NCBI RefSeq assembly: GCF_035285525.1
Contig: NZ_JAYKGW010000090.1
Span: forward strand, 30,001-62,000
Direction of reading: 5' to 3'
DNA length: 32,000 nt
Source of the DNA: Okeania sp.
Lineage (GTDB): Bacteria > Cyanobacteriota > Cyanobacteriia > Cyanobacteriales > Microcoleaceae
Shown here in pieces: positions 19,627-31,942 of the stretch. Position 1 is the stretch's first letter. Every line of letters starts with the position of its first letter. The position numbers and the translations under genes were made by a program. The notes below the pieces were generated by a model. The model saw only the letters and a list, made by a program, of their open reading frames with translations, was not told the origin of the DNA and ran no database searches.

Positions 19627-20423
19627 TGGAAGCGATAACTCTACAAAATTTATTTCTACAAGCTGTTTTGGAAAAAGATAGTTTTAGTATAGAAAAATTA
19701 AGTCAACATATTAAAGCACCGAATAATTTAACACCTGCCGAAAGTTTGGCAATTTACCACAATAATGTTGTGGGAAATTTAAGTAATACATTAGTCTCAA
19801 TTTATCCTGTTTGTTGTCAGTTATTAGGTGAAAAATTTTTTAATGCTACGGGATTAAAATTTATTGAAAAGTTTCCTTGTTTATCACCAGACTTAGGAGA
19901 TTATGGGGAAGAGTTTGCAGATTTTTTGGCTAATTTTGAACCTGTAAAAGATTTACCATATTTGTCAGATGTAGCCCGTTTAGAATGGCATTGGCATCGT
20001 ATTTTTGCTGGTGAAAATACAAATGGTTTAGATTTCCAAACTTTAGGAGAAATTCCTCAAGAAAAATGGGGGGAATTGATTTTTTATTTACCAAAAAATA
20101 GTGTTTTATTAGAGTCTATCTATCCTATTCATAGAATTTGGCAAGTTAATCAATCTGATTATCAAGGGGATGAAGTAGTTAGTTTAGATGAAGGTGGAGT
20201 AAAAATATTTTTGTGGCGACAAGGTTATGATATGCGAATTGATTTACCTAAAGATGATGAGTGGGAATTATTAACAGTTTTTCAAGGAAATTATCCAGTT
20301 GAAATTATCTGTGAAAAATTAGTTGATGTTGAATCTGAAGTGGATGTTGGTTTGTTACTGCCATTGTTTGTGCAACGAGGTTGGATTACTAATTTTTCTA
20401 TAGTAGGGGTGGGTTTTAACTAG
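19626..20423 (+). CDS. bufC: DUF2063-family partner protein (BufC-type)
   Basis: 265 aa. Its start overlaps the bufB stop (TAATG). It has DUF2063-like features: IYHNNVVGNLSNTL..IYPV, DLGDYGEEFADFL and YLSDVARLEWHWHR. Confidence 0.8.
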   Translation: MEAITLQNLFLQAVLEKDSFSIEKLSQHIKAPNNLTPAESLAIYHNNVVGNLSNTLVSIYPVCCQLLGEKFFNATGLKFIEKFPCLSPDLGDYGEEFADFLANFEPVKDLPYLSDVARLEWHWHRIFAGENTNGLDFQTLGEIPQEKWGELIFYLPKNSVLLESIYPIHRIWQVNQSDYQGDEVVSLDEGGVKIFLWRQGYDMRIDLPKDDEWELLTVFQGNYPVEIICEKLVDVESEVDVGLLLPLFVQRGWITNFSIVGVGFN

Positions 20424-20567
20424 AATTTCCATACTTATTCTAAGATTTATATAAACCCACCTTTTCATTTATCAAATAATTAATAGTAGGGGTGGGTTTT
20501 AACTAAAATTTCCATACTTATTCTAAGATTTATATAAACCCACCCTTTCATTTATCAAATAATTAAT
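20401..20567 (+). repeat. 83-bp tandem duplication x2 that starts inside the last codons of bufC
   Basis: Unit TAGTAGGGGTGGGTTTTAACTAGAATTTCCATACTTATTCTAAGATTTATATAAACCCACC(C)TTTTCATTTATCAAATAATTAA. The copies at 20401..20483 and 20484..20566 differ at about 2 positions. Each has GGGTGGGTTT...AAACCCACC inverted arms. Confidence 0.85.
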
Positions 20568-20884: not shown

Positions 20885-22900
20885 ATGAAAGAAATCCTTT
20901 ACTTAGAAGTACCAACGCCAGATACGAAAACTGTTTGTCAATGGCTACAATCTCAATTTCAACCTGGTTTTGGCCAAAAAAATATAACTCCAGATGGCTT
21001 TATTCTCAAACTTCCTGAAGACCCTACTCAGGAAATATCTGTCTTTTTATGGTCATTACAACGAACTACCTATCTGAAAGTATTTGCTGAAGGAAATATA
21101 TCTTCAATACAGCAAAAATTTACCTCAAATTTAACTAACAATTTACGAAAAGAATTTCCTCTAAACTATCCAGAACCTCCCCAAATTGATCTATCTAATC
21201 AGTCAATTTTTACAGCTTTAGCATCTGATTATCCCTTGACAGTTAAATACTTTCAAAAAATGCCTAAAGGAGAGTATTATCTCAACCGTTTATATTGGTG
21301 GGAAAAACGTTGGCGAGAATCAGTTAAAAATCCTCAAAAACCTAAACAGGTGCTTTGGAAAAAAGAGTCAGAAACTAATAATAATTCAGTTGAATATGAC
21401 TTAATTTATGTTGGTGGCGCTCTGGGAATAGTTCATGCAGCAGTCATGGCAAGATTGGGATATAAAGTATTATTATTAGAACGTTTACGTTTCGGTACAA
21501 TGAATCGAGAATGGAATATTTCTCGCTCCGAAATTCAAGGTTTAATTGATTTAGGTTTATTTACAAATACAGAAGTAGAAAACTTAATTGCCAGAGAATA
21601 TAAAGATGGATTTAATAATTTTTTTGATGCTAATAATCCGGATTTTTGTAAAGCAGAAATTCTCCATACTCCCACAGTTTTAAATTTGGCATTAGATTCA
21701 GAAAAATTATTAACTTTATGTGGAAATAAACTCCTAGAAGCTGGTGGAAAAATCGTCGATGAAACAGAATTTATTAAAGCTGATATTGAACCAGAAAAAG
21801 TAGTAGTTTACACTCAAAATCTATCTACCAAAACTGAACAAATTTTCTCTGGTCGTTTGTTAATAGATGCTATGGGTACTGCTTCTCCTATCGCTTGGCA
21901 ATTAAATGGAAAACGAGCTTTCGATAGTGTTTGTCCCACAGTCGGAGCTGTAATAGATGGTGGATTTGAACCAGGTGTTTGGGATTCAAATTATGGAGAT
22001 GTTCTCAATAGTCATGGAGATATTTCTCGCGGGAGACAATTAATTTGGGAGTTATTTCCTGGTAAAGATAATGAGTTAACAATTTATCTATTTCATTATC
22101 ATCAAGTTCATCCAGAAAACCCTGGTTCTCTGTTAGAAATGTATGAAGATTTTTTCACTATTTTACCAGAATATCGACGCTGTGATCTGGATAAATTAGT
22201 ATGGAAAAAGCCAACATTTGGTTATATTCCTGGGCATTTTAGTATTAAAGGTAGCGATCGCCAAGTTGCTTTTGACCGTCTAGTTTGTATTGGTGATGCT
22301 GCTTCTCTCCAGTCTCCCTTAGTATTTACTGGTTTTGGTTCTTTAGTGAGAAATTTACCTCGTTTAACTGAACTTTTAGATACTGCTTTAAAATATGATT
22401 TACTCAGTGCCAATAACTTAAATAAAATTCGTGCTTATCAAAGCAATATTGCCATTACTTGGTTATTTTCTAAAGGTATGATGGTTCCTACTGGTAAGTT
22501 TTTACCTCCCCAAAAAATCAATTCTATTTTGAATACATTCTTTGGCTTATTAGCAGATTCTCCCCCAGAAGTAGCAGATACTTTTATTAAAGATAGGGCT
22601 GATTGGTGGACTTTTACAAAACTAGCTCTCAAAGCAGCCAGAATCAATCCTTATCTTTTATTCTGGATTCTAGACTTTATTAATTTCCAGGAAATATTAC
22701 TGTGGATAACCAGTTATATTAATTTCACTTTGTTTAGTTTAATAAGTTGGTTATTCGGATGGTTCCCTAGTTTTGCTCGTTCGATTCAACCTTGGTTAGA
22801 ACCTCGTTTTCCTGGTTTATGGTTTTGGATATTAGCTAATAGTTATGCTTTAACTTATAATGTCGGTCAACCACAGATGAATTTCCAATTACAAAAGTAA
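20885..22900 (+). CDS. FAD-dependent oxidoreductase with a hydrophobic C-terminus; possibly a CruA/CruP-type lycopene cyclase family protein
   Basis: 671-aa ORF. It has a dinucleotide-binding fold, YDLIYVGGALGIVHAAVMARLGYKVLLLER, after an N-terminal domain of about 170 aa. C-terminal hydrophobic segments include LLFWILDFINF...LFSLISWLFGWF. The CruA assignment comes from size, architecture and memory, not from a search. Confidence 0.45.
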   Translation: MKEILYLEVPTPDTKTVCQWLQSQFQPGFGQKNITPDGFILKLPEDPTQEISVFLWSLQRTTYLKVFAEGNISSIQQKFTSNLTNNLRKEFPLNYPEPPQIDLSNQSIFTALASDYPLTVKYFQKMPKGEYYLNRLYWWEKRWRESVKNPQKPKQVLWKKESETNNNSVEYDLIYVGGALGIVHAAVMARLGYKVLLLERLRFGTMNREWNISRSEIQGLIDLGLFTNTEVENLIAREYKDGFNNFFDANNPDFCKAEILHTPTVLNLALDSEKLLTLCGNKLLEAGGKIVDETEFIKADIEPEKVVVYTQNLSTKTEQIFSGRLLIDAMGTASPIAWQLNGKRAFDSVCPTVGAVIDGGFEPGVWDSNYGDVLNSHGDISRGRQLIWELFPGKDNELTIYLFHYHQVHPENPGSLLEMYEDFFTILPEYRRCDLDKLVWKKPTFGYIPGHFSIKGSDRQVAFDRLVCIGDAASLQSPLVFTGFGSLVRNLPRLTELLDTALKYDLLSANNLNKIRAYQSNIAITWLFSKGMMVPTGKFLPPQKINSILNTFFGLLADSPPEVADTFIKDRADWWTFTKLALKAARINPYLLFWILDFINFQEILLWITSYINFTLFSLISWLFGWFPSFARSIQPWLEPRFPGLWFWILANSYALTYNVGQPQMNFQLQK

Positions 22901-22960
22901 AGAAAGAAGAAAGAAGAAAGAAGGCTTTAGTTATCTAGGAGAGAAGGAAGAAGGAAAGAG
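22893..22960 (+). repeat. Polypurine (GAA/GGAA-rich) tracts straddling the stop codon and 3' end of the 671-aa gene
   Basis: AAAAGTAAAGAAAGAAGAAAGAAGAAAGAAGG and AGGAGAGAAGGAAGAAGGAAAGAG. A 15-nt stretch, GAAGGAAGAAGGAAA, is the exact complement of part of 20740..20760. Confidence 0.8.
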
Positions 22961-22979
22961 CGAATGTAATTCGCTCTTT
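22955..22979 (+). terminator. Candidate intrinsic terminator of the 671-aa gene
   Basis: 11-bp perfect stem AAAGAGCGAAT / ATTCGCTCTTT with loop GTA. The U-tail is only short. Confidence 0.5.
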
Positions 22980-22980
22980 C

Positions 22981-23043
22981 ATTATCAATTATCAATTATC
23001 AATTATCAATTATCAATTATCAATTATCAATTATTAATTATTC
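22981..23043. repeat. Heptamer tandem repeat ATTATCA x6, plus 2-3 degenerate units (STRR-like)
   Basis: Read directly. Shorter versions of the same motif (TCATTATCAATTATC, TTATTATCAATTA) recur at 24102..24116 and 27928..27940. Confidence 0.85.
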
Positions 23044-23091
23044 ATTGAAAAAGGCGATCGCTCCCGATCAAAACCAGATTTAGGGAAAGCC

Positions 23092-23126
23092 AGAAAGCAG
23101 ATTTTTTTTCAAAAAACCGGGTTTCT
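23092..23126. repeat. Island hairpin repeat, copy R1 (left arm degenerate)
   Basis: AGAAAGCAGATTTTTTTTCAAAAAACCGGGTTTCT, preceded by the shared leader ATCAAAACCAGATTTAGGGAAAGCC. It lies immediately 3' of the 150-aa gene on the minus strand. Confidence 0.7.
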
Positions 23127-23133
23127 TAAACAA

Positions 23134-23586
23134 TTAAATCGGAGCAGTTACTAACTCTTTCTCTACTATTTCTGTTGCTTCTGGAGGTTTTTCTGCTTCT
23201 ATATCCATGAGTGCTTTTATCCTTTTAAATAAATCGACTTCTGCCGGTTCTTTGTCTGTTAATTTTTCGTAAAAATAGGGGTCATTTAACCAGTGGGGAA
23301 AAGCTATTTCTAATAAACCATTTTCCCAGAGTTTAAAACGCCAGTATTTTGATACTCGATCATCGACTATCTCAAATAATGGGGCACAATGTTTCTGAGG
23401 ATAATAGATAAAATTGTCATCGCAAATGTAGTACCAAAACTTTCCTTCTGCTTGATCGATAGCATAGACAATATATTCTTTACCTACTGTTAATCTAAAG
23501 AGGGTTTCTGTGGTTCGATTAACAGCTGGATCGAGATAATTTTCTGGAAGAGATGCGCCAGTGTTGGCAATACAACGAATTTTCAT
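23134..23586 (-). CDS. Uncharacterised 150-aa protein, protector/immunity-like member of the duplicated cassette (copy 1)
   Basis: The ATG at 23586..23584 (MKIRCIANTGASLPE...) lies 13 nt after the stop of the upstream ORF and follows AAGGAAAA. The longer 191-aa reading in the ORF track overlaps the upstream gene out of frame. By manual alignment, 100 of 150 residues are identical to the paralog at 25912..26364. Confidence 0.7.
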   Translation of the reverse strand: MKIRCIANTGASLPENYLDPAVNRTTETLFRLTVGKEYIVYAIDQAEGKFWYYICDDNFIYYPQKHCAPLFEIVDDRVSKYWRFKLWENGLLEIAFPHWLNDPYFYEKLTDKEPAEVDLFKRIKALMDIEAEKPPEATEIVEKELVTAPI

Positions 23587-23599
23587 GGGTTTATTTTCC

Positions 23600-23908
23600 T
23601 TATTGATTTCTTGGTGCTGCTTTGGGATATTCTCGTTTGAATTTAAACTCAACGTCTTGAGCAGTTTTGCGGTTTCTGTACCAGTGGACTTGTACCGCTG
23701 CTCCATCAAGTATTAAACTATTCGTACTTGACATTTTAACCCAGTCTCCTGGTTCGCCGCCATAATTTTCGACGAGTCGGGGAGAACATCTCAAAGGTTT
23801 TAATGGCGTTCCTTGAATTTCTATGGCTATCCCAGCCTTAGCCTGTTCTAAAAGCAGTTGCTCTTCTAAGTTATTGGGAGTTTCATCGGGAATCGGGCCA
23901 GTTGTCAC
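23600..23908 (-). CDS. Uncharacterised 102-aa protein, toxin-like member of the duplicated cassette (copy 1, intact)
   Basis: GTG start; an in-frame TAG lies 13 codons upstream. It encodes VTTGPIPDETPNNLEEQLLLEQAKAG...ENYGGEPGDWVKMSS...VQVHWYRNRKTAQDVEFKFKREYP. The paralog at 26378..26685 is inactivated. Confidence 0.6.
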   Translation of the reverse strand: MTTGPIPDETPNNLEEQLLLEQAKAGIAIEIQGTPLKPLRCSPRLVENYGGEPGDWVKMSSTNSLILDGAAVQVHWYRNRKTAQDVEFKFKREYPKAAPRNQ

Positions 23909-23947
23909 AGTGTTGTTTTTTTTGCTTGGTAAAAAAGGTTGATTCTA

Positions 23948-23953
23948 ATTATA
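23948..23953 (-). promoter_or_regulatory. Candidate -10 box (TATAAT) of the cassette, conserved in both copies
   Basis: TATAAT on the minus strand, about 40 nt upstream of the GTG. The same box lies at 26723..26728 in copy 2, inside a conserved stretch GCGATC.CT...TTTTATTTTATAATTAGAATCAACCTTTTTTACCAAGC. Confidence 0.3.
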
Positions 23954-23999
23954 AAATAAAAGCGATCGCTCCTTATCAAAAGCAGGTTTAAGGAAAGCC

Positions 24000-24032
24000 A
24001 GAAACCCGGTTTTTCCGAAAAACCGGGTTTCT
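24000..24032. repeat. Island hairpin repeat, copy R2
   Basis: AGAAACCCGGTTTTTCCGAAAAACCGGGTTTCT: 14-bp perfect arms with a 5-nt loop. Confidence 0.8.
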
Positions 24033-24117
24033 CAAAGGGCTGGGTTGACATAAAATTAATAGAAACCTGTAGGAGTTTATGGTCATTAACCCCCACTCTT
24101 TCATTATCAATTATCCA

Positions 24118-24879
24118 TTAAAAAGATACCCAAGATTTAACATCATCAAAACTCCAAGGCGAAGGCGGATTCTTATTGTAGTCAATAAAATATTCGTATC
24201 CGAGTTGCTCGTATAACTCAGATACTAATTGCTGTAAATCTAATATCGGTTCGATATCTGTTGGCAAAAGGGGAAAAGGGAAACTGGGAAGGCGATCGCC
24301 TACGTTAAAACTGTACAAATCTGGGGTGGGGCGAGTATTACCACGACTAACTAATATACGATAGTGTTTTGATTTGCTATTGTGGAAAACTGGCATGGCA
24401 GAGCCACCTCGTAATAAATCTATTTCTACTAAGTGAGTCATACTTTCTAAGATTTGTTGTCGTTTGGCTAGATACTTCTGGTGACCTTCTCCTGTTTTAT
24501 TAGCAGGGGAGAGAACTTCTACAACCGCGACTACTTCTTTTGTGGCTGTATCTTTGACTTCAATGTAGGATTGCCGGACTTCTTCTCGTAGGGGAATGGC
24601 TACTTTCACGGGTTTGACTGAGAGTTTTTGGGCAGTAATGGTTGCTGCCAGCGTAGTTTTTGATTCTCGATTATTTTGTACGCTAACGTCTGGTCTACCG
24701 ATAGTAATGGAGGTTGAGTTGCCGATTTTATAAACCCACTTGTCAGTGACGACTCGGTATTTGGGAGCGAGCGGTGGAACCAGGTTTCTAGCTATGGCAG
24801 CAACCAGTTGATTGTGGAAGTCAGACCAATATTCAGGTTGTTCGAGATAAGGATTCATTCCGGGAAATGGATTGGGCAT
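24118..24879 (-). CDS. DUF4058-family protein
   Basis: The start at the internal ATG gives MPNPFPGMNPYLEQPEYWSDFHNQLVAAIA, the characteristic DUF4058 N-terminus. The upstream extension in the ORF track (MFKKPGFLEKTGFL) only translates hairpin repeat R3. Confidence 0.8.
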   Translation of the reverse strand: MPNPFPGMNPYLEQPEYWSDFHNQLVAAIARNLVPPLAPKYRVVTDKWVYKIGNSTSITIGRPDVSVQNNRESKTTLAATITAQKLSVKPVKVAIPLREEVRQSYIEVKDTATKEVVAVVEVLSPANKTGEGHQKYLAKRQQILESMTHLVEIDLLRGGSAMPVFHNSKSKHYRILVSRGNTRPTPDLYSFNVGDRLPSFPFPLLPTDIEPILDLQQLVSELYEQLGYEYFIDYNKNPPSPWSFDDVKSWVSF

Positions 24880-24949
24880 GGTTTTTCTGAGGTAGTTGGT
24901 TTTATTTAATGTAGCAGAATGGGTGGCGATCGCTTTCTGAAGACTATCC

Positions 24950-24983
24950 AGAAACCCGGTTTTTTCCAAAAAACCGGGTTTCT
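24950..24983. repeat. Island hairpin repeat, copy R3
   Basis: AGAAACCCGGTTTTTTCCAAAAAACCGGGTTTCT, followed by the same TAAACAATTAAGCGGGAG sequence found after R4. Confidence 0.8.
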
Positions 24984-24990
24984 TAAACAA

Positions 24991-25022
24991 TTAAGCGGGA
25001 GTTGTTGCTAACTTTTTCTCTA
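24991..25022 (-). pseudogene. 3'-terminal remnant of a third copy of the 150-aa cassette gene
   Basis: TTAAGCGGGAGTTGTTGCTAACTTTTTCTC reads on the minus strand as ...EKKLATTPA-stop. This parallels ...DKELATAPA-stop of copy 2 (25912..) and has the same spacing to the hairpin repeat. Homology ends near 25022. Confidence 0.55.
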
Positions 25023-25078
25023 ACGATATGATAACATAATTTTGAGAAAATAAATTCACTTCTTGATTGGAGGACAAA

Positions 25079-25330
25079 ATGCAAATTACTTTGGAAATTC
25101 CTGATGAGATGCTTCAAGGAAAAGGATTAAACGAAGGAGAATGGTTGCAGGAAATAGCGATCGCTCTATTTCAAAAAGAATTAATAACTCTCGCTCGTGC
25201 TAGCAGGATTGCCCGAATGCACCAAATGGATTTTCAAAAGCTAATTGCCAGTCGCGGTATCTGCATTCATTACGATGTTGAAGAGTTTGAACAAGACATT
25301 CGGCATTTAGAAGAGCGGGGTTGGTTATGA
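25079..25330 (+). CDS. UPF0175-family antitoxin-like protein
   Basis: The ATG at 25079 follows GGAGGA. It encodes MQITLEIPDEML...LITLARASRIARMHQMDFQKLIASRGI, typical of UPF0175. Its stop overlaps the next start (ATGA). Confidence 0.8.
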   Translation: MQITLEIPDEMLQGKGLNEGEWLQEIAIALFQKELITLARASRIARMHQMDFQKLIASRGICIHYDVEEFEQDIRHLEERGWL

Positions 25331-25725
25331 TTATTGTTAGCGATACTTCACCTTTATGTAATCTACAACTGGTTAATTCTCTCTGGTTATTGCGAGAACT
25401 TTATGGTATAGTTATAATTCCTCATGTTGTGGCTGAGGAACTTGCTGCTGCTAGCAATCTGGATATTCAAAATATTTGCCACCTAGAATGGATACAAATC
25501 CGAACTCTTAGTTTAACAAAGGTTGCTGAAAGCCTTCAGAGGAAGCGGGGATTATATCCAGGAGAAGCCAAGGCCATAGCTTTAGCAATCGAGCTTAAGG
25601 CAGACGATCTGCTTATTGATGAGCGACTCGGAAGACGAGAAGCTTTGCAACTCGGATTATCTGTTATTGGTGTATTGGGGATTTTAGTCGCTGCCAAACA
25701 AAAAGGTTTAATTCCAATGGTATAA
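25327..25725 (+). CDS. DUF3368-family PIN-like toxin-like protein
   Basis: IIVSDTSPLCNL..., GEAKAIALAIELKADDLLIDERLGRREA and GVLGILVAAKQKGLI are typical DUF3368 blocks. It is paired with the UPF0175 gene. Confidence 0.8.
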   Translation: MIIVSDTSPLCNLQLVNSLWLLRELYGIVIIPHVVAEELAAASNLDIQNICHLEWIQIRTLSLTKVAESLQRKRGLYPGEAKAIALAIELKADDLLIDERLGRREALQLGLSVIGVLGILVAAKQKGLIPMV

Positions 25726-25870
25726 CCTGTTATGGATACCCTTATTGAGGAGGCTGGTTTTAGAGTAAGTGATCGTTTATACCAGCGAATTATTACTTGA
25801 TCTAGTGAGTGAAGTGTTAAAAAGGGAAGGTTGCGATCGCTCCACATCAAAACCAGATTTAGGGAAAGCC

Positions 25871-25904
25871 AGAAACCAGGTTTTTTTGAAAAAACTAGGT
25901 TTCT
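25871..25904. repeat. Island hairpin repeat, copy R4 (slightly degenerate)
   Basis: AGAAACCAGGTTTTTTTGAAAAAACTAGGTTTCT with the same leader as R1. It lies immediately 3' of cassette copy 2. Confidence 0.75.
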
Positions 25905-25911
25905 TAAACAA

Positions 25912-26364
25912 TTAAGCGGGAGCAGTTGCTAACTCTTTATCCTCTGTTTCTGTTGCTTCTGGCGGTTTTTCTGCTTCTCTATCCATGAGGTATCTTATCC
26001 TTTTAAACAAATCGACTTCTGCCGGTTCTTGGTCTGTTAATTTATCATAGAAATAGGGAATGGTAAACCATTGAGAAAACGCTACTCTTAACAAGCCGTT
26101 TGGCCTTAAATTAAAGCGCCAATATTTAGATAGTCGATCGTCTACTACCTCAAACAACGGGGCGGGATTTTGCATCGGGTAATACATATAATGGTCGTCA
26201 GCAATGTAGTACCAAATTTGTCCTTTCCATTCATAAAAAGCATAAACAACATACTCTTTGCCAATAGTTAATCCAAATTCTAGGTCTCTAGTGTAACCTC
26301 CATTAGGATCGAGATCATGCTCTGGCAGAGATGCGCCAGTGTTAGCGATACAACGAATTTTCAT
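25912..26364 (-). CDS. Uncharacterised 150-aa protector/immunity-like protein (cassette copy 2, intact)
   Basis: ATG at 26364..26362 (MKIRCIANTGASLPEHDLDP...). It is the paralog of 23134..23586. Confidence 0.7.
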   Translation of the reverse strand: MKIRCIANTGASLPEHDLDPNGGYTRDLEFGLTIGKEYVVYAFYEWKGQIWYYIADDHYMYYPMQNPAPLFEVVDDRLSKYWRFNLRPNGLLRVAFSQWFTIPYFYDKLTDQEPAEVDLFKRIRYLMDREAEKPPEATETEDKELATAPA

Positions 26365-26377
26365 GGGTTGATGTTCC

Positions 26378-26685
26378 TTATTGATTTTTAGGTGCTGTTT
26401 TGGGATATTCCCGTTTAAATTTGAACTCAACGTTTTGAGCTGTTTTGTTGTTTCTATACCAATGGACTTGTACGGAAGCTCCATCAATTAATACAGACTG
26501 TTTAGTTGTCATTTGATCCCAGTCTTCGAGAGAACCGCCATAGTTGGCCACAAGTTGCGAAGCGTATCTTAGCGGTTCTTTACTGCCATTAAAGATGGTC
26601 TTACTTTGCCCTTTTTGGCATCTTCTAGAAGTAGTTGCTATTCTAAGTTATTGGGTGTTTCATCGGGAATCGGGCCTGTTGTCAC
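26378..26685 (-). pseudogene. Inactivated paralog of the 102-aa toxin-like gene (cassette copy 2)
   Basis: Same GTG start context (VTTGPIPDETPNNLE). An in-frame TAG at 26638..26640 replaces the Glu codon of copy 1. The gene is 308 nt against 309 nt, with a 1-nt loss near the A/G run at 26605..26620. After the shift the frame reads ...GSKEPLRYASQLVANYGGSLEDWDQMTTKQSVLIDGASVQVHWYRNNKTAQNVEFKFKREYPKTAPKNQ. Confidence 0.75.
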
Positions 26686-26774
26686 AGTGTTGTTTTTTGC
26701 TTGGTAAAAAAGGTTGATTCTAATTATAAAATAAAAGCGATCACTCTTGATAAAAACCAAACTTAGGGAAAGCC

Positions 26775-26807
26775 AGAAACCCGGTTTTTCGGAAAAACCG
26801 GGTTTCT
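26775..26807. repeat. Island hairpin repeat, copy R5
   Basis: AGAAACCCGGTTTTTCGGAAAAACCGGGTTTCT, followed by CAAAGGGC as in R2. Confidence 0.8.
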
Positions 26808-26826
26808 CAAAGGGCATAATTAACAT

Positions 26827-27858
26827 TAGAGTTGTTGGGAAATAACTTAGGTTAGAAAAAAACTCAAACGAAAACTGATAGATTTCCTGAGTAATTTGAT
26901 TACTTATGCTGCCATCAGATATAAGTTCCACGGGTACAGTTGCTGTTAGCATTAATTTGTCATCAAAATCATACTTATGATTACGATAAATCTGACTGAC
27001 AACTCCATAACGTTTCATACCCTTGATATGCGTTTTCACATACTACCCTTGATTGGCTCAATTTCCGATTTTCTAATTTTTGTTGCTCACTTAACTCTCC
27101 CCCTTTTGGTTTTTTATGGGGAATGCGGATATTTTCATACTGATGCGTGGATACCTTGGAAACCACTGTCTACTTGAATCGGAATCTCTACAGGTATATT
27201 TCAAGCGCAATTTCTCCTGATCATGGAACTTCTTATCATGTAGCTTTCCTTCTCGTGCCTGGCTCAATACCAGTACTTTCTGGTTTTGATTGACTGCAAC
27301 TAAATGTTTACGAGTGTGACGCTTTTTTTTTCCCGAATAATTCAGTTTTGGTTTTTCTGAGTCAGTTAGTCGTTGCACTGGCCGCTGAAGTGCCATCCAT
27401 TATCACTCGTTTTACTCCAGGGAAACGTTCTATGAATCCTTGGACACTGTTAACTTGACGCTCTGGTAGCACCTTTTTTTCTTCCAGAGCTGCTTCTAAT
27501 GCTAGGGGTTGTCAGCGATGAACCCAATAATGTGCCTGACTACGGTCGATATCAAATAAGATACCAGCTCAATCAAAAGTTGGGTAACACTTAAAGTAGA
27601 ATAGAATGTCAAACAATTTGTCTTGATTGGTGCGTAAACGAGCCTTACGGCCTCCTCCAATAGAGCGTTGACGAGGTTTTGAGTGCAATGTTTGCTCATA
27701 CATTTGAGCAAAGGACTCCAACAAAGATTCAAATGCTTTACGGTTTAATCCCGTTAATCCTCTGAGTAACCTGTCTGGTTTTAAGGCTCGTTCAATATTT
27801 AGCATTTTTATGGCCAATTTCTTCTTGAATCATTTTACCTTATTTCCCAACAACTCTA
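26827..27858 (-). mobile_element. Degenerate IS element (IS5-family / Harbinger-like, DDE_Tnp_4-type transposase) with 19-bp perfect terminal inverted repeats
   Basis: TAGAGTTGTTGGGAAATAA at 26827..26845 is the exact reverse complement of TTATTTCCCAACAACTCTA at 27840..27858. The interior encodes transposase pieces in three frames. Confidence 0.8.
26890..27817 (-). pseudogene. IS transposase gene, multiply frameshifted (approximate 3' limit)
   Basis: HTH_Tnp_4-like N-terminus LTGLNRKAFESL...GGGRKARL...LFYFKCYPTFD (27569..27817). DDE_Tnp_4 core NYSGKKKRHTRKHL...GKLHDKK (27091..27396). C-terminal pieces IPHKKPKGGELSEQQKLENRKLSQSRVVCENA and IKGMKRYGVVSQIYRN lie in other frames. There are several stops and an A9 run at about 27326. 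Confidence 0.75.
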
Positions 27859-27938
27859 TTAAATGAATAGAAAACCTGTAGGGGGGTTTCATGTCGCGCA
27901 GCAAAATGCTATTCGCCCTTAACCTTTTATTATCAATT

Positions 27939-27975
27939 AAAAAAACGCCCCGGTCGTAATATCGGGGCGTTTTTT
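27939..27975 (-). terminator. Bidirectional intrinsic terminator downstream of the RTX gene
   Basis: AAAAAACGCCCCG-GTCGTAATAT-CGGGGCGTTTTTT: an 8-bp GC-rich stem flanked by an A-run and a T-run. It is followed by a second palindrome, GGGAGCGATCGCTCCC, at about 27982..27997. Confidence 0.8.
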
Positions 27976-28027: not shown

Positions 28028-31000
28028 CTAAAGCTGAATCCTAAAATCCGTGACACCAATATCCGGCGCACCCTCTAATTTAACAAACAAACCGCCATTC
28101 CCCAAACCAGCTTTGTTACCATTACTATTGTAAAACAGTTCTCCGCTCTCGTCATTGTAAACAATAAATGCTTTGCTGCTAGCAACCTCGGCAGCATCAT
28201 CAACAACTGCAAATTCCCGTTTGCGACTGAAACTATTACCTTGAAGACTCTTGATAACTTTAAACGCGCTTTTGTCGAGAATAAGTTTGTCTTCACCCAA
28301 TATAAAGTCAGTTATTTCATCGGTTTCTGTTTTCTTAAAGTCAGCAAAAATAAAGGAATCTCTGCCTTTGCCTCCAGTTAATATATCCTCCCCTTTACCG
28401 CCATTGAGTTTGTCTTTACCCTTGCCTCCAAGTAGGGTGTCGTTGCCGTTTTTCCCCAACAGTTTGTCGTTACCGCCCTTGCCATCTAACACATCGTCTA
28501 GATTACTGCCTCTGAGAGTATTTCTACGATTGTTGCCGTTTTTAATAATGCCTTGGTTTGGGTTATTTAAGGAGTCAATTATTTCCTGACCCGTGAGGTT
28601 ATCCACAGTCTCAATGAAACCTTCACCTTTGTTGCCTTTTTCGTCGAAAAAGTTGTTAATAGTCAGTTCTTTAGTAATTACTATCTTACCATTTTTCTCC
28701 TCCAATAATTGGGAAGACTCTCCACTAAAGAGTTCCATCAGTTCTTTGTCGATATTTTGCTTGATCGTAGCGATCTTCCCATTTCCATCAATATCTATTA
28801 CTAGATCGGTACCTTGACGCAAAAAGCCAGTCTTGCCTTTAGCTAAACCACCTTCAGAAAGATCGACATCTTCTAGTTCGAGACGATCTTTACCACCAGT
28901 ATCAATGATCTGACTACCAGATGCGTTTTTAGCTTGGAGTATGTATAAATCATCTCCATCACCACCGTTCAAAATATCAGCATCGCCTCCACCTTCGAGA
29001 GTATCTTTCCCATCACCACCTTCGAGACTGTCGTTTCCAGTACCACCATCTACTTCATCATCACCTACACCACCAGATATAATGTCTTGACCATCACCAC
29101 CACTAATCACATCTGCTTGATTTCCTGAAGTTGATTTCAGTTGAAAATCTCCCAAGATAAAATCGTTTCCAGTACCACCAAACATTGTGTCAGCACCTTC
29201 ACCTCCAGACATAATATCTTCTCCAGCATTACCCCAGATTTGGTCGTCACCACCTTTGGCATAAACTGCATCATCTCCATCAAGAGACCTGATAACATCT
29301 GCCTCATCTTGACCAACCAAATGATTATCTTGACTGGTATCAACTAATTTTTTGCTGTTCTGTGCGACTCCAAAAATTGTTTCTAACTCCTCTATGTCTG
29401 TTATATTTGTAGGATTCAAAACCAAGTGAGTTAAATGAGAATATCCTTCGGGTTCAGCGATGGTGTAGGTGACATCAATGGTTGCGGATGTGGCAGTTAC
29501 AGTTTTAGGTAGTTTGACTTTCCAAGCATCTTTGGCGCTGTTGACGGTAATAGTTTTACCATCCTGAGTTACTTCTAGATTGCTAATTACTAGATCGTCT
29601 AAAGTGTAGAGATTTTTTACTTCTATATCGGGATCGCTAAAGTTCTGGAGGAGAAATTCTTTGGGCAGGCTAAATTCTTTTAAACCACTGGGTAGATCGT
29701 AATCCCAGCGAGCTGGTGTTTGACCAGGTTGACGAATATTACCCTCAGCCAAATCTACGCGATCGACTGCCCATTCGTTATCAAGTTGTATTTGAGCAGT
29801 TTGGCCGTCAGTTGTAATAGCTTCCGAATAAAAGAGACGCGATCGCTGGTCGTTACCAAAGGGATCGAGAATAGGCTCGTTAGCTTTTTTACTCTTGTTA
29901 TAAACTGAGTCTGGTACGAGGATGGAGTTAACATCTTCTGTCTCAAACTTAATCAAACCAATTCCAAATAGCAGATCGACTGTACCATCTGGTTTTGTTA
30001 CTTCTACTGCATTTTCATAAGTTTCGGAAGCTCGGATCGCATAATCCTGAGAACTACCTTCCGTGTAAACTACCACATCGCTCAAGAATGGAGAAGTAAA
30101 ACCATCGAAAGCTACAGGCTCCCCAGTAGTTGAAGTAGAAGCAGACATTATAAAAACGTTTTCCCCAGGGCTAATAATAGTATTGTTACCCCCGCCGGAA
30201 TAAATAAAATTATAGGTGTTGGCATCGGCAACTAATTTATCATCTCCTTCTCCTAAGTGGTAGCTAACCATCGGTACATATTGAGCATAAGATGTTTTTG
30301 GGAAATTACTCTCTAGAGGTTGAGAGGTAAATGGTTTAACTTTTTGTAAATCATTTTTAGTGAAATTGAAATCAGAGCTTATGTTTGCGTATTCAGCATT
30401 TAAGATTGTGTCTGCTTTATCAGTAAATATAACTTCAGGAATGTAGCTGCTATATACTCCGCCTACTCCTCCTGGTAGTTCTGTATTGTCAAAGGCATCT
30501 TTTAAACTACTGAAGTCAACCCTGTTCACTTTTCCTAATGCGAACCAATGGGTTCCATCCAGAACTTTTGTACTTTCAAAAACAACCTCATCAAATATAT
30601 CGTCATCTATTCCTAAGGTTAGCGCACTCCTAATATTATCTTTGAGAATAACTTTCCGATAGGCGTCATCTTGATTAGGTTGTCTCCCACGAATTAAAAT
30701 GTTTTCTACAAGAGACCAACCAATAGTAAAGGTTTGTTTTGACGGTGACTGCAAGGAATAGCGTTCGTCGCTACCTACTTCTTTTCTAGCTGAAGATCCC
30801 GCCAAGTCAGCAGAAGCTATAATCAAAGATTTTAAGTCAGCATCAATGCGATCGAGAGTGAAGAAAGGTCCACTGCGACTTTCTCGGGGATCGTAATATT
30901 TAATAAAGTTAGAGTCATCAATTTCAACTTCCACTTCTGATAAGTCGGAAACACCTATCTTTCTCTCAAGTGCTTGAGTTTCCAAGACAAGAGTATATTC

Positions 31001-31942
31001 TGAGTCTTTGAGATTACCTGAAGGATTTAAGTCATTGCCACCAGCACTAAAAATACCGTAGATTCTGCCATCTGTGGGGTGGGTTACTAAATGGTTTAAT
31101 CCTACCTCTCCCCCTAAGTTGACAATCCTCAGAGTATGGGGAGACTTACTCAAGTCTCCACTCAGGGCAGTAATTTCACCAGGGTTAACAGCAGAAATAA
31201 AGGCATCGTAAGTACCTGGAGCGCTTTCAAAATAGACAGAATTAGTGCCACCACCCAAGTCTATAATATCCTGGTAAATAGACGAACCTTCTGGCAGTAA
31301 AAACAACTCACCTCCATGAATATTTTTCTTAAGATAGGGATTTTTCCAACGCAAAGCATCAGTAAGAGTAATATTTGCTTCTGTTTCATTGGTGTGTAGC
31401 TGTAGGGTATCATTTCCCGAACCTAAAATATAAGGCGCTCCTCTATTATACCCAATCGGAACCTTCAGCCGATCGGGACCTTGGGTTCCAGTTAAAACCC
31501 CCACTGGTAGGTCAATAGCATAAACATCTGGGGGTGAACCGCCTAAGAAAAGATCGGGTTGGCGATCGCCAACATCACCTAAACTGGTAAAGTCCATCTT
31601 TATTCCTTCGGTGCTTGCTTGCAGCTCATCGGAAAGAATAATTCTTTCTATGTTGTCAAGTTTAGTGTTATTATTCTTGTTATCAACTTTGAGATTATAA
31701 GATACATCTGTTCGATCTAATGATATGTCTGTGCCATTGAAATTTTTTCCATTATACACATCTGAGTCTAAGATAAATACATCTCCAGCACTTGCAGTAA
31801 ATTCACTGATAGGGTTGTCAAAAGGATCTTTGTAAGTTCTGGGCTTTACTTGGTTGCTCTCGTCTCCCCCATCAACAATATCATTACCAAGACTCAGTTG
31901 ACCAGCATCAGGACTATCAGGACAACAAGTCAGGTAGTGCAA
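28028..31942 (-). CDS. Large RTX-type calcium-binding protein with a type I secretion C-terminal target domain
   Basis: 1304-aa ORF. There are two blocks of GGxGxD nonapeptide repeats, at about 28960..29340 and 28352..28520 (e.g. GGDGQDIISGGVGDDEVDGGTGNDSLEGGDGKDTLEGGGDADILNGGDGDD). The C-terminus is DEITDFILGEDKLILDKSAF...LFYNSNG...VTDFRIQL. The 5' end is uncertain: the only start candidate is a TTG at 31942, preceded by an in-frame TGA. Confidence 0.8.
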   Translation of the reverse strand: MHYLTCCPDSPDAGQLSLGNDIVDGGDESNQVKPRTYKDPFDNPISEFTASAGDVFILDSDVYNGKNFNGTDISLDRTDVSYNLKVDNKNNNTKLDNIERIILSDELQASTEGIKMDFTSLGDVGDRQPDLFLGGSPPDVYAIDLPVGVLTGTQGPDRLKVPIGYNRGAPYILGSGNDTLQLHTNETEANITLTDALRWKNPYLKKNIHGGELFLLPEGSSIYQDIIDLGGGTNSVYFESAPGTYDAFISAVNPGEITALSGDLSKSPHTLRIVNLGGEVGLNHLVTHPTDGRIYGIFSAGGNDLNPSGNLKDSEYTLVLETQALERKIGVSDLSEVEVEIDDSNFIKYYDPRESRSGPFFTLDRIDADLKSLIIASADLAGSSARKEVGSDERYSLQSPSKQTFTIGWSLVENILIRGRQPNQDDAYRKVILKDNIRSALTLGIDDDIFDEVVFESTKVLDGTHWFALGKVNRVDFSSLKDAFDNTELPGGVGGVYSSYIPEVIFTDKADTILNAEYANISSDFNFTKNDLQKVKPFTSQPLESNFPKTSYAQYVPMVSYHLGEGDDKLVADANTYNFIYSGGGNNTIISPGENVFIMSASTSTTGEPVAFDGFTSPFLSDVVVYTEGSSQDYAIRASETYENAVEVTKPDGTVDLLFGIGLIKFETEDVNSILVPDSVYNKSKKANEPILDPFGNDQRSRLFYSEAITTDGQTAQIQLDNEWAVDRVDLAEGNIRQPGQTPARWDYDLPSGLKEFSLPKEFLLQNFSDPDIEVKNLYTLDDLVISNLEVTQDGKTITVNSAKDAWKVKLPKTVTATSATIDVTYTIAEPEGYSHLTHLVLNPTNITDIEELETIFGVAQNSKKLVDTSQDNHLVGQDEADVIRSLDGDDAVYAKGGDDQIWGNAGEDIMSGGEGADTMFGGTGNDFILGDFQLKSTSGNQADVISGGDGQDIISGGVGDDEVDGGTGNDSLEGGDGKDTLEGGGDADILNGGDGDDLYILQAKNASGSQIIDTGGKDRLELEDVDLSEGGLAKGKTGFLRQGTDLVIDIDGNGKIATIKQNIDKELMELFSGESSQLLEEKNGKIVITKELTINNFFDEKGNKGEGFIETVDNLTGQEIIDSLNNPNQGIIKNGNNRRNTLRGSNLDDVLDGKGGNDKLLGKNGNDTLLGGKGKDKLNGGKGEDILTGGKGRDSFIFADFKKTETDEITDFILGEDKLILDKSAFKVIKSLQGNSFSRKREFAVVDDAAEVASSKAFIVYNDESGELFYNSNGNKAGLGNGGLFVKLEGAPDIGVTDFRIQL

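Follow-up and report, generated by a model that had tools for sequence, protein, structure and literature searches.

The interval between positions 22901 and 27940 of a 32,000-nt window on contig NZ_JAYKGW010000090.1 of Okeania sp. (assembly GCF_035285525.1) is probably a species-variable dump of small selfish modules, largely a graveyard, the backbone of which is a decayed cassette array accompanied by generic repeats. The window is the whole stretch of DNA that was analysed, and positions given without a contig name refer to it. The original prediction had placed this DNA in the Nostocales and had described the interval as a mosaic island delimited by a boundary motif (ATTATCAATTA) and by five copies of a 33-35-nt hairpin; the genome is Okeania-like (Microcoleaceae), and the Nostocales placement was not borne out. 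The eye-catching 'delimiters' proved to be generic intergenic repeats, and the island is consequently not to be read as a new mobile or cassette system. As a variable hotspot beside a conserved gene, it documents the gain and decay of small modules: a toxin-antitoxin (TA) pair, a DUF4058 gene, an insertion sequence (IS) and a two-gene cassette.

We propose the following history. The backbone would be a head-to-tail array of a cassette encoding a 102-aa and then a 150-aa protein, in which cassette A is intact, cassette B has a dead upstream gene and a third copy survives as a 12-codon stub. This array would later have been interrupted or partly replaced by the DUF4058 gene, by a UPF0175/DUF3368 pair with a nonsense mutation in the toxin gene, and by a dead IS5-like element. 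The hairpin would belong to the spacer between cassettes, in which it follows the 150-aa stop codon at a distance of 7 nt, and would have reached every junction by array duplication and gene conversion of the flanks, not by five separate events, because the spacers are copies of one another; it would not define module borders. The boundary motif would travel with the cassette flank, and local slippage would have turned it into a heptamer array. The rearrangements probably arose by homologous recombination or gene conversion between the repeated flanks, and the hairpin probably spreads as a mobile element.

The two-gene cassette array

Two copies of the cassette, A and B, could be delineated in the interval, with the following genes.

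23134 to 23586, minus strand: 150-aa gene A, intact, 88-91% identical to A-type orthologues
23600 to 23908, minus strand: 102-aa gene A, intact; AlphaFold2 (AF2) model with a pLDDT of 82 and no PDB fold match
25912 to 26364, minus strand: 150-aa gene B, intact; 67% amino acid identity to A and 85% to B-type genes in the related genomes G023 and G034
26378 to 26688, minus strand: 102-aa gene B, a pseudogene broken by a TAG in frame and by a frameshift of 1 nt (three-frame translation and alignment to cassette A)

When the IS is removed, units A and B align over 23050-24120 and over 25829-26826 plus 27859-27945, at 78% overall. The repeated unit consists of a leader with its hairpin (LH), the 150-aa gene, the 102-aa gene, a promoter-like region, a second LH, a tail and the motif; both hairpins and the motif thus lie inside the duplicated unit. 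A and B represent ancient types of cassette, and each is more closely related to cassettes of other genomes than to its neighbour.

The 150-aa family has 159 homologues in the protein database, from filamentous cyanobacteria, and is present in 15 of 61 related genomes. Cassettes were surveyed at the 80 best loci, where 89 150-aa genes were scored; the search was seeded with the 150-aa gene, so that loss in the reverse direction was not sampled. At least two cassette copies were found at 14 of the 80 loci, mostly head-to-tail at 838-906 bp, a period that matches the 904-908 bp spacing of the hairpins in the island. The 102-aa partner was full in 61 of the 89 cases, partial in 10 and missing in 18 (28 of 89 without a full partner), and this genome holds three intact 150-aa genes against one intact 102-aa gene. 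Such asymmetric decay, with the upstream gene lost and the downstream gene kept, is the pattern of toxin/immunity pairs and the sole support for that label. The 'toxin-like/protector-like' description in the original prediction was not backed by homology or fold: neither protein matched Pfam, NCBIfam, PADLOC or PDB sequence profiles, and Foldseek searches of PDB with the AF2 models (pLDDT 82 and 72) returned no fold at E < 0.1. With its ancient types and homogenised flanks, the cassette is a reasonable candidate for a new toxin-immunity-like family.

The third intact 150-aa gene of this genome (54% identity) belongs to a cassette copy at 34286-34843 of contig C117, where the 102-aa gene is reduced to roughly its last 38 codons, which abut a small open reading frame (ORF) that looks HicB-like by eye. 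Trichodesmium erythraeum has a highly expressed 736-973-bp tandem array (PMC4143802); a link to it was considered and dropped, as no T. erythraeum locus was among the 80 best cassette loci.

Hairpins and leaders in the island

All five 33-35-nt palindromes were recovered within 1 nt of their predicted positions and far above chance. They are listed below with their leaders and folding free energies.

23054 to 23126, plus strand: LH1, a HIP1-containing leader and hairpin H1 (23092-23126; left arm decayed, -9 kcal/mol); its 3' end is 7 nt short of the stop codon of 150-aa gene A
23962 to 24032, plus strand: LH2, a leader and hairpin H2 (24000-24032; perfect palindrome, -24 to -25 kcal/mol on the minus strand, listed as -25), upstream of the promoter-like region of cassette A
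24950 to 25020, plus strand: hairpin H3 (24950-24983; perfect palindrome without leader, -24 to -25 kcal/mol on the minus strand and -21 on the plus strand) with the 12-codon 3' stub of a third 150-aa gene; repeat family D4, 88% identity to the end of cassette B
25833 to 25904, plus strand: LH4, a leader and decayed hairpin H4 (25871-25904; two non-compensated mismatches, -13 kcal/mol); its 3' end is 7 nt short of the stop codon of 150-aa gene B
26737 to 26807, plus strand: LH5, a leader and hairpin H5 (26775-26807; perfect palindrome, -24 to -25 kcal/mol on the minus strand, listed as -24), from repeat scan and folding

With at most two mismatches allowed, the 32-kb window contains 11 sites of the arm AGAAACCCGGTTTTT, where 0.11 would be expected, and nine of the 11 are within the island. 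H2, H3 and H5 have folding z-scores of -4 to -5, with free energies between -21 and -25 kcal/mol. A leader of about 38 nt, which starts with a HIP1 site (GCGATCGC) and has the pattern GCGATCGCTCC..ATCAAAA.CAG.TTTAGGGAAAGCC, precedes four of the five hairpins; the claim that most copies carry a conserved leader is correct for these four and fails for H3. A hairpin had also been claimed for every module junction, and this is true of five of the six, the junction between the IS and the repeats-in-toxin (RTX)-type gene having a classical terminator instead.

LH1 and LH4 are 90% identical (family D3), and LH2 and LH5 are 89% identical over 134 nt (family D5). Each of these two pairs is made up of paralogous parts of a single duplicated unit, so that the five island hairpins would amount to about two to three independent elements. 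LH1 is missing at the orthologous position in three related genomes (G006, G032 and G009, the last being Okeania sp. SIO3I5, locus L101).

A genome-wide palindrome family

The island hairpin is a subfamily of a genome-wide intergenic palindromic repeat that acts like repetitive extragenic palindromic (REP) elements and REPINs or like the small dispersed repeats (SDRs) of cyanobacteria. A fuzzy scan (at most two mismatches per arm) of the 6.5-Mb assembly yielded 144 full hairpins and 812 single arms, the latter at a mean of 0.63 per 5 kb, and the hairpins therefore do not serve as island-specific delimiters. Arm density reaches 7 per 5 kb in the island and is higher at loci on contigs C138 (12 arms), C36, C3 and C18. 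ORFs of at least 150 aa cover 64% of the genome and hold 4 of the 144 hairpins (2.8%), 97% being intergenic. The family palindrome has the pattern AGAAACCCGGTTT[C/T]T-loop-A[G/A]AAACCGGGTTTCT; its common form is AGAAACCCGGTTTCT-NNN-AGAAACCGGGTTTCT, often nested within a larger GGACTTACGCAA...GTAAGTCC element, and the island subfamily (inner stem TTTTT/AAAAA) is minor, with about 10 exact sites. Compensatory cells in the stem number 30, where 500 shuffles gave 6.2 +/- 2.1 and at most 14; 18 are left when the subfamily-defining pair is excluded.

Exact copies number 75 in this genome, 268 in G023, 508 in G061, 26 in G014 and 0-18 in about 40 other relatives, with 0 in the reversed-pattern control; Okeania genomes whose cassettes are hairpin-free have 0-8. 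No Rfam family matched the hairpin at gathering score, the weak matches all lying on the terminator of the RTX-type gene, and a full-text literature search for the core 13-mer of the hairpin matched no paper.

A REP-associated tyrosine transposase (RAYT) gene flanked by the repeat was not found among the five PF01797 (Y1_Tnp) matches in the genome, none of which has hairpin arms within 2.5 kb except the one on C23 (1.4 kb). Counts of Y1_Tnp (IS200/RAYT-type) genes do not follow hairpin counts in the five genomes compared. A RAYT-driven REPIN was ruled out on these two grounds, the missing flanking association and the missing count correlation.

Elsewhere in the window, at 1150-1261, a hairpin of the common subfamily is nested in an GGACTTAC...GTAAGTCC element, and this composite repeat has 82% identity to an element at a cassette junction (A'/remnant) of Okeania sp. 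SIO3I5.

Boundary motif and heptamer array

The three copies of the ATTATCAATTA motif are far above chance (10 matches to the motif core in the window against 1.2 expected) and were found 1 nt from the predicted coordinates. The 20-mer CTCTTTCATTATCAATTATC starts at 22974 and 24096, and a diverged form occupies 27923-27939.

22974 to 23041, plus strand: motif copy 1 (CTCTTTCATTATCAATTATC), running into the heptamer array (8.7 units of ATTATCA at 22981-23041)
24033 to 24120, plus strand: tail and motif copy 2, including the 26-mer ACTCTTTCATTATCAATTATCCATTA, a dispersed repeat across the genus
27859 to 27940, plus strand: remaining tail of unit B and diverged motif copy 3, aligning with 24054-24120 after removal of the IS

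The role of the motif as an island boundary did not hold. The 20-mer has 22 sites in this genome (at most two mismatches), usually as ...AAAAAAACTCTTTCATTATCAATTATCCATTA near gene ends, and the 26-mer at 24095-24120 is 100% identical at many sites in at least seven congeners (G001, G002, G004, G006-G009). Motif sequence also follows A-type cassettes directly in G006 and G032. The motif is part of a second dispersed intergenic repeat, genus-wide in its distribution, that travels with the cassette flank. In G006 and G032 the orthologous flank has only about three imperfect heptamers (ATTATCA ATTATTA ATTATCC), and the 8.7-unit array is for this reason best explained as a local slippage expansion. 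More than 10 other heptamer arrays are present in the window. The DUF2063-like gene of the bufferin cluster is directly followed, at 20400-20567, by an 83-nt sequence in two tandem copies (97% identical); heptamer arrays of CTTCTTT and TAATAGC come next and lie upstream of the oxidoreductase gene.

Comparison with related genomes

Only one syntenic locus was found, on a 6348-bp contig of Okeania sp. SIO3I5. Its order is oxidoreductase gene (92%), UPF0175/DUF3368 pair (92%), cassette X, cassette A' (89-96%), a remnant, a hydrolase-like gene and a terminator. An ordinary terminator marks the TA/X junction, the X/A' junction is hairpin-free, and the A'/remnant junction has a hairpin of the common subfamily within a composite element. 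In Dapis the hydrolase gene, absent from the genome studied here, is directly 3' of the oxidoreductase gene and represents the empty site. Neither the island genes nor the RTX-type gene occur within 10 kb of the oxidoreductase gene in eight close relatives (L001-L007 and L016). Module number and order accordingly vary between this genome, SIO3I5 and Dapis, as the synteny check suggested by the original prediction required. The island had also been placed between two conserved genes; the oxidoreductase gene is conserved, whereas the RTX-type gene is not its neighbour in any relative.

Homology blocks shared with SIO3I5, G006 or G032 end at 22898 (at the stop codon of the oxidoreductase gene), 23131-23132 (at a distance of 5 nt from H1), 23956 (immediately ahead of the HIP1 site in LH2), 25021-25041 (the end of the stub) and 25842 (the HIP1 site of LH4). 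Homology of the TA module to G009 and G006 starts at 25021-25041, and that to G009 ends in the HIP1 site of LH4. Most breakpoints are thus within about 10 nt of a hairpin edge or HIP1 site, which agrees with the expectation that they coincide with repeats, although these are also the only non-coding places available. The modules stand here in the order A, stub, TA, B and in SIO3I5 in the order TA, X, A', remnant; one order can be turned into the other by cyclic permutation, with all orientations kept. Such a shift would fit a model in which the whole block was tandemly duplicated and then suffered deletions at its two ends; with four modules, its probability at random is about 13%.

Cores and flanks group differently. 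The coding DNA of the 150-aa gene groups by type (A 90-98%, B 85%, X 83%), as does the variable part of the 102-aa gene (A 95-96%, B 87%, X 88%), whereas the 62 nt upstream of the 102-aa gene group by genome: A and B of this genome (G000) share 92% and X and A' of G009 share 92%, while the A orthologues share 83% (G000 and G009) and 69% (G000 and G006). At the level of these alignments, this indicates that flanks were homogenised within each genome by concerted evolution or that cores were exchanged between constant flanks, either of which would be why junctions within one genome look alike. Growth of the island by duplication or recombination at the repeats is accordingly upheld as far as the variable interval and the breakpoints at repeats are concerned, and is not borne out in the case of A and B, which are ancient types, not recent duplicates.

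As junction markers in general the hairpins also fail, most orthologous junctions elsewhere being hairpin-free; a hairpin arm at most 160 nt from the stop codon accompanies three of the 89 surveyed 150-aa genes. The leader is homologous to a hairpin-free spacer of the G023 arrays, so that the hairpin is an addition to an older spacer. One MAFFT alignment hinted that the hairpin had arisen in situ out of the ancestral spacer; this was not adopted, the same hairpin being found elsewhere with unrelated flanks.

The combination of LH, tail, motif and terminator, a block of about 230 nt, recurs on contig C88 of this genome beside a TA paralogue. A reading of the block as a MITE was rejected: the apparent terminal repeats are mostly self-complementary HIP1 and A/T runs, and there are about three copies. 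On contig C75 (3972-4100), an RTX paralogue has at its 3' end the motif ATTATCAATTAAAAAAG, which is joined directly to a full LH element without a cassette between the two, an arrangement that is either a paralogous 'empty' version of the right end of the island or a deletion product.

Flanking genes and inserted modules

The contents of the two segments agree with the earlier description by ORF and domain assignments.

20885 to 22900, plus strand: flavin adenine dinucleotide (FAD)-oxidoreductase-like gene, 671 aa, the conserved left anchor; weak GG-reductase/FAD matches alone
22954 to 22980, strand not assigned: terminator-like hairpin GAAAGAGCGAAT-GTA-ATTCGCTCTTTC, 12 pairs followed by a T-rich tail on the minus strand
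24118 to 24882, minus strand: DUF4058 gene (Pfam PF13267, E 2e-89), a lineage-specific insertion
25079 to 25330, plus strand: UPF0175 antitoxin-like gene (Pfam PF03683, E 3e-21; PADLOC PDC-S70)
25327 to 25725, plus strand: DUF3368 (PIN-like) toxin-like gene (PADLOC PDC-S70, E 2e-46, profile positions 1-132 of 162)
26827 to 27858, minus strand: degenerate IS (DDE_Tnp_4, IS5-like) of 1032 bp with 19-nt perfect inverted repeats (I11); PF13359 on one fragment
27945 to 27975, minus strand: classical intrinsic terminator of the RTX-like gene, a GC stem followed by UUUUUUU (-19.9 kcal/mol, z -5.6)
28028 to 31942, minus strand: RTX-type repeat protein gene, the right edge of the island in this genome only (ORF listing)

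Relatives of the oxidoreductase number 579 in genome contigs, the closest being from Okeania, 'Trichodesmium' metagenome-assembled genomes and Dapis. The hairpin at 22954-22980 lies between the convergent oxidoreductase gene and cassette A, and the CTCTTTC of motif copy 1 forms its 3' arm. The terminator at 27945-27975 has homologues in G009, G006 and contig C88.

The DUF4058 gene has two paralogues in this genome (45%) and no close orthologue in 40 relatives, where the best DNA identity is 67%; hence no module ends could be taken from it. The UPF0175 and DUF3368 genes are adjacent with an ATGA overlap, and the presence of both family domains fits the PADLOC candidate PDC-S70, although the Pfam match of DUF3368 is partial and below the cut-off. 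UPF0175 orthologues in G009 and G006 are 92-94% identical. Codon 133 of the DUF3368 gene is TAA (25723-25725) and in SIO3I5 it is CAA, with a loss of about 27 residues; because the frame downstream of this nonsense codon is still conserved, the toxin gene has become a pseudogene only recently. G006 retains UPF0175 together with no more than 30 nt of the toxin partner, the rest being deleted. A palindrome-like box, GATATGATAACATAATT, is found upstream of UPF0175 at 25022-25040 and also in G006 (locus L129, 6860-6880 and 5680-5700), where an unrelated small module of two genes has it upstream as well; TA-type modules may have this box in common as a promoter or operator.

The IS is inserted in the tail of unit B, the empty site being visible in unit A. 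Its relatives are located at C2:1804-2830, C13:27049-28071 and C71:21368-21821; the four copies are 77-80% identical and all have many stops or frameshifts, and the IS5-like family is extinct in this genome.

Alternative explanations

The hairpins could be functional, as bidirectional terminators, 3'-end mRNA stabilisers or insulators between modules. In the island, each of the two intact 150-aa genes has a hairpin (H1 or H4) 7 nt behind its stop codon, the same offset is seen at locus L137 of genome G061, H2, H3 and H5 are stable, and the stem is maintained by compensatory changes genome-wide; roles in termination and in mRNA stabilisation have also been reported for REP elements (PMC3733652). 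We nevertheless regard such a role as improbable. The stems are not followed by a U-tract, and H2 on the minus strand alone passes a lenient terminator scan, which H1, H3, H4 and H5 fail; the region contains 7 terminator-like sites against a shuffle mean of 4.9. The two copies placed as terminators would be, H1 and H4, are the decayed ones (-9 and -13 kcal/mol), with changes that are not compensatory. The hairpin is absent at the orthologous cassettes of G009, G006, G032 and G023 and at 86 of 89 genes elsewhere, and classical terminators are already present at 22954-22980 and 27945-27975. Judged by sequence, a stabiliser or terminator role is not supported, nor is the suggestion in the original prediction that the hairpins double as terminators and insulators.

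Alternatively, the flank blocks (HIP1, leader and hairpin, tail, motif) might be recombination handles by which ancient cassette types and small modules are swapped between slots, in an integron-like manner without integrase. Cores clustering by type across genera and flanks by genome would be expected of such handles, and the same block adjoins not only cassettes A and B but also the TA paralogue of contig C88 and, in G006, another module of two genes; the breakpoints against G009, G006 and G032 at the edge of H1, at two HIP1 sites and at the stub end, together with the cyclic permutation of the SIO3I5 order, point the same way. Against this, breaks at intergenic repeats are expected anyway, as modules can break in spacers only, and the permutation has the chance probability given above. 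The block is low-copy, with three in this genome, the cassette arrays of most genomes are hairpin-free, and no recombination event was directly observed. We hold this reading to be possible but unlikely, and the wider proposal to which it leads, an integrase-free cassette-exchange system in filamentous cyanobacteria that permutes trans-specific types (A, B, X and others) of a toxin/immunity-like cassette, is put forward as an equally doubtful one.

A true integron-like array with the hairpins as attC-type sites was rejected as extremely improbable. It would be favoured by a palindromic element at the 3' end of each small cassette and by the cassette content, as TA-type cassettes are common in chromosomal integrons. 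However, the integron integrase model TIGR02249 matched nothing in the genome, which is 97% complete, and the palindrome is not built like an attC site: it is a perfect one of 33-35 nt without extrahelical bases or R/L boxes, where attC is an imperfect palindrome of 57-141 nt. Moreover, the cassettes are of mixed orientation and come with a conserved promoter-like region of their own, and the same hairpin occurs at hundreds of unrelated intergenic sites.

Several observations weigh against a decayed array with generic repeats. The density of hairpins in the island is about 11 times the genome mean. At L137, in a genome with 508 exact copies, T-rich hairpins with the 7-nt offset stand at every cassette junction, which leaves room for an old or functional link between hairpin and cassette. 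The block of LH, tail, motif and terminator on contig C372 of G006, 89% identical to LH5, lies beside a different two-gene module and may be more than passive filler. The contrast between flanks and cores is drawn from 62 nt and two within-genome pairs, a mobilising enzyme for the hairpin was not found (the Y1 transposase genes are not flanked by the repeat), and the comparison set consisted of related species, with no genome of the same species that could reveal recent dynamics. With these points taken into account, a decayed cassette array overlaid by dispersed repeats and inserted modules is still the reading that we consider probable.

Comparison with known systems

The CdiA-CT/CdiI and Rhs-CT orphan modules are arrays of toxin-immunity units of polymorphic toxin systems. 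The cassette array resembles them in its head-to-tail small two-gene units of several ancient types, in the frequent loss of the upstream gene, in its patchy distribution (15 of 61 genomes) and, at this locus, in its position downstream of a gene for a secreted repeat protein. It differs in that no known toxin or immunity protein matches its two proteins by homology or fold, in the promoter-like region of each unit, and in that the 102-aa protein has no similarity to the C-terminus of the RTX-type protein. The UPF0175/DUF3368 module, for its part, differs from a full type II TA pair in that its toxin gene is not full-length.

Heptamer tandem repeats of filamentous cyanobacteria, the short tandemly repeated repetitive (STRR) sequences, were reportedly described by Mazel et al. 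in 1990. Like these, the 8.7 units of ATTATCA form a tandem heptamer array in an intergenic spacer; unlike these, the array has a unit that differs from the classical STRR1-3 and is an expansion of a pre-existing three-unit motif.

SDR1-8 of Nostoc and Anabaena were described by Elhai et al. 2008 (Genome Res 18:1484), as cited in PMC3116915 and PMC5861425. The Okeania hairpin is likewise a tiny dispersed intergenic repeat that lacks a transposase of its own, is nested in other repeats (the GGACTTACGCAA...GTAAGTCC composite) and is closely associated with HIP1 sites. It is, in contrast, a longer perfect palindrome, and the likeness to SDR1-8 drawn here is one of description. SDRs are reported from Nostocaceae only (PMC5861425), whereas the host here belongs to the Microcoleaceae.

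With REP elements and REPINs (Bertels & Rainey 2011, PMC3116915; Di Nocera et al. 2013, PMC3733652) the hairpin shares the form of a short (about 33 nt) extragenic palindrome with two inverted, near-identical arms in tens to hundreds of copies, a frequent position right after stop codons, a stem maintained by compensatory change, and copy numbers that differ sharply among related genomes. According to PMC3733652, a GTAG (or CGTC) end tag is a criterion for REP elements; the Okeania consensus AGAAACCCGGTTTCT... has neither tag, and the hairpin does not flank a RAYT gene. A REP/SDR-like palindrome family in the Microcoleaceae that ranges from 0 to about 500 exact copies without a RAYT partner offers a clean system for studying how such repeats spread.

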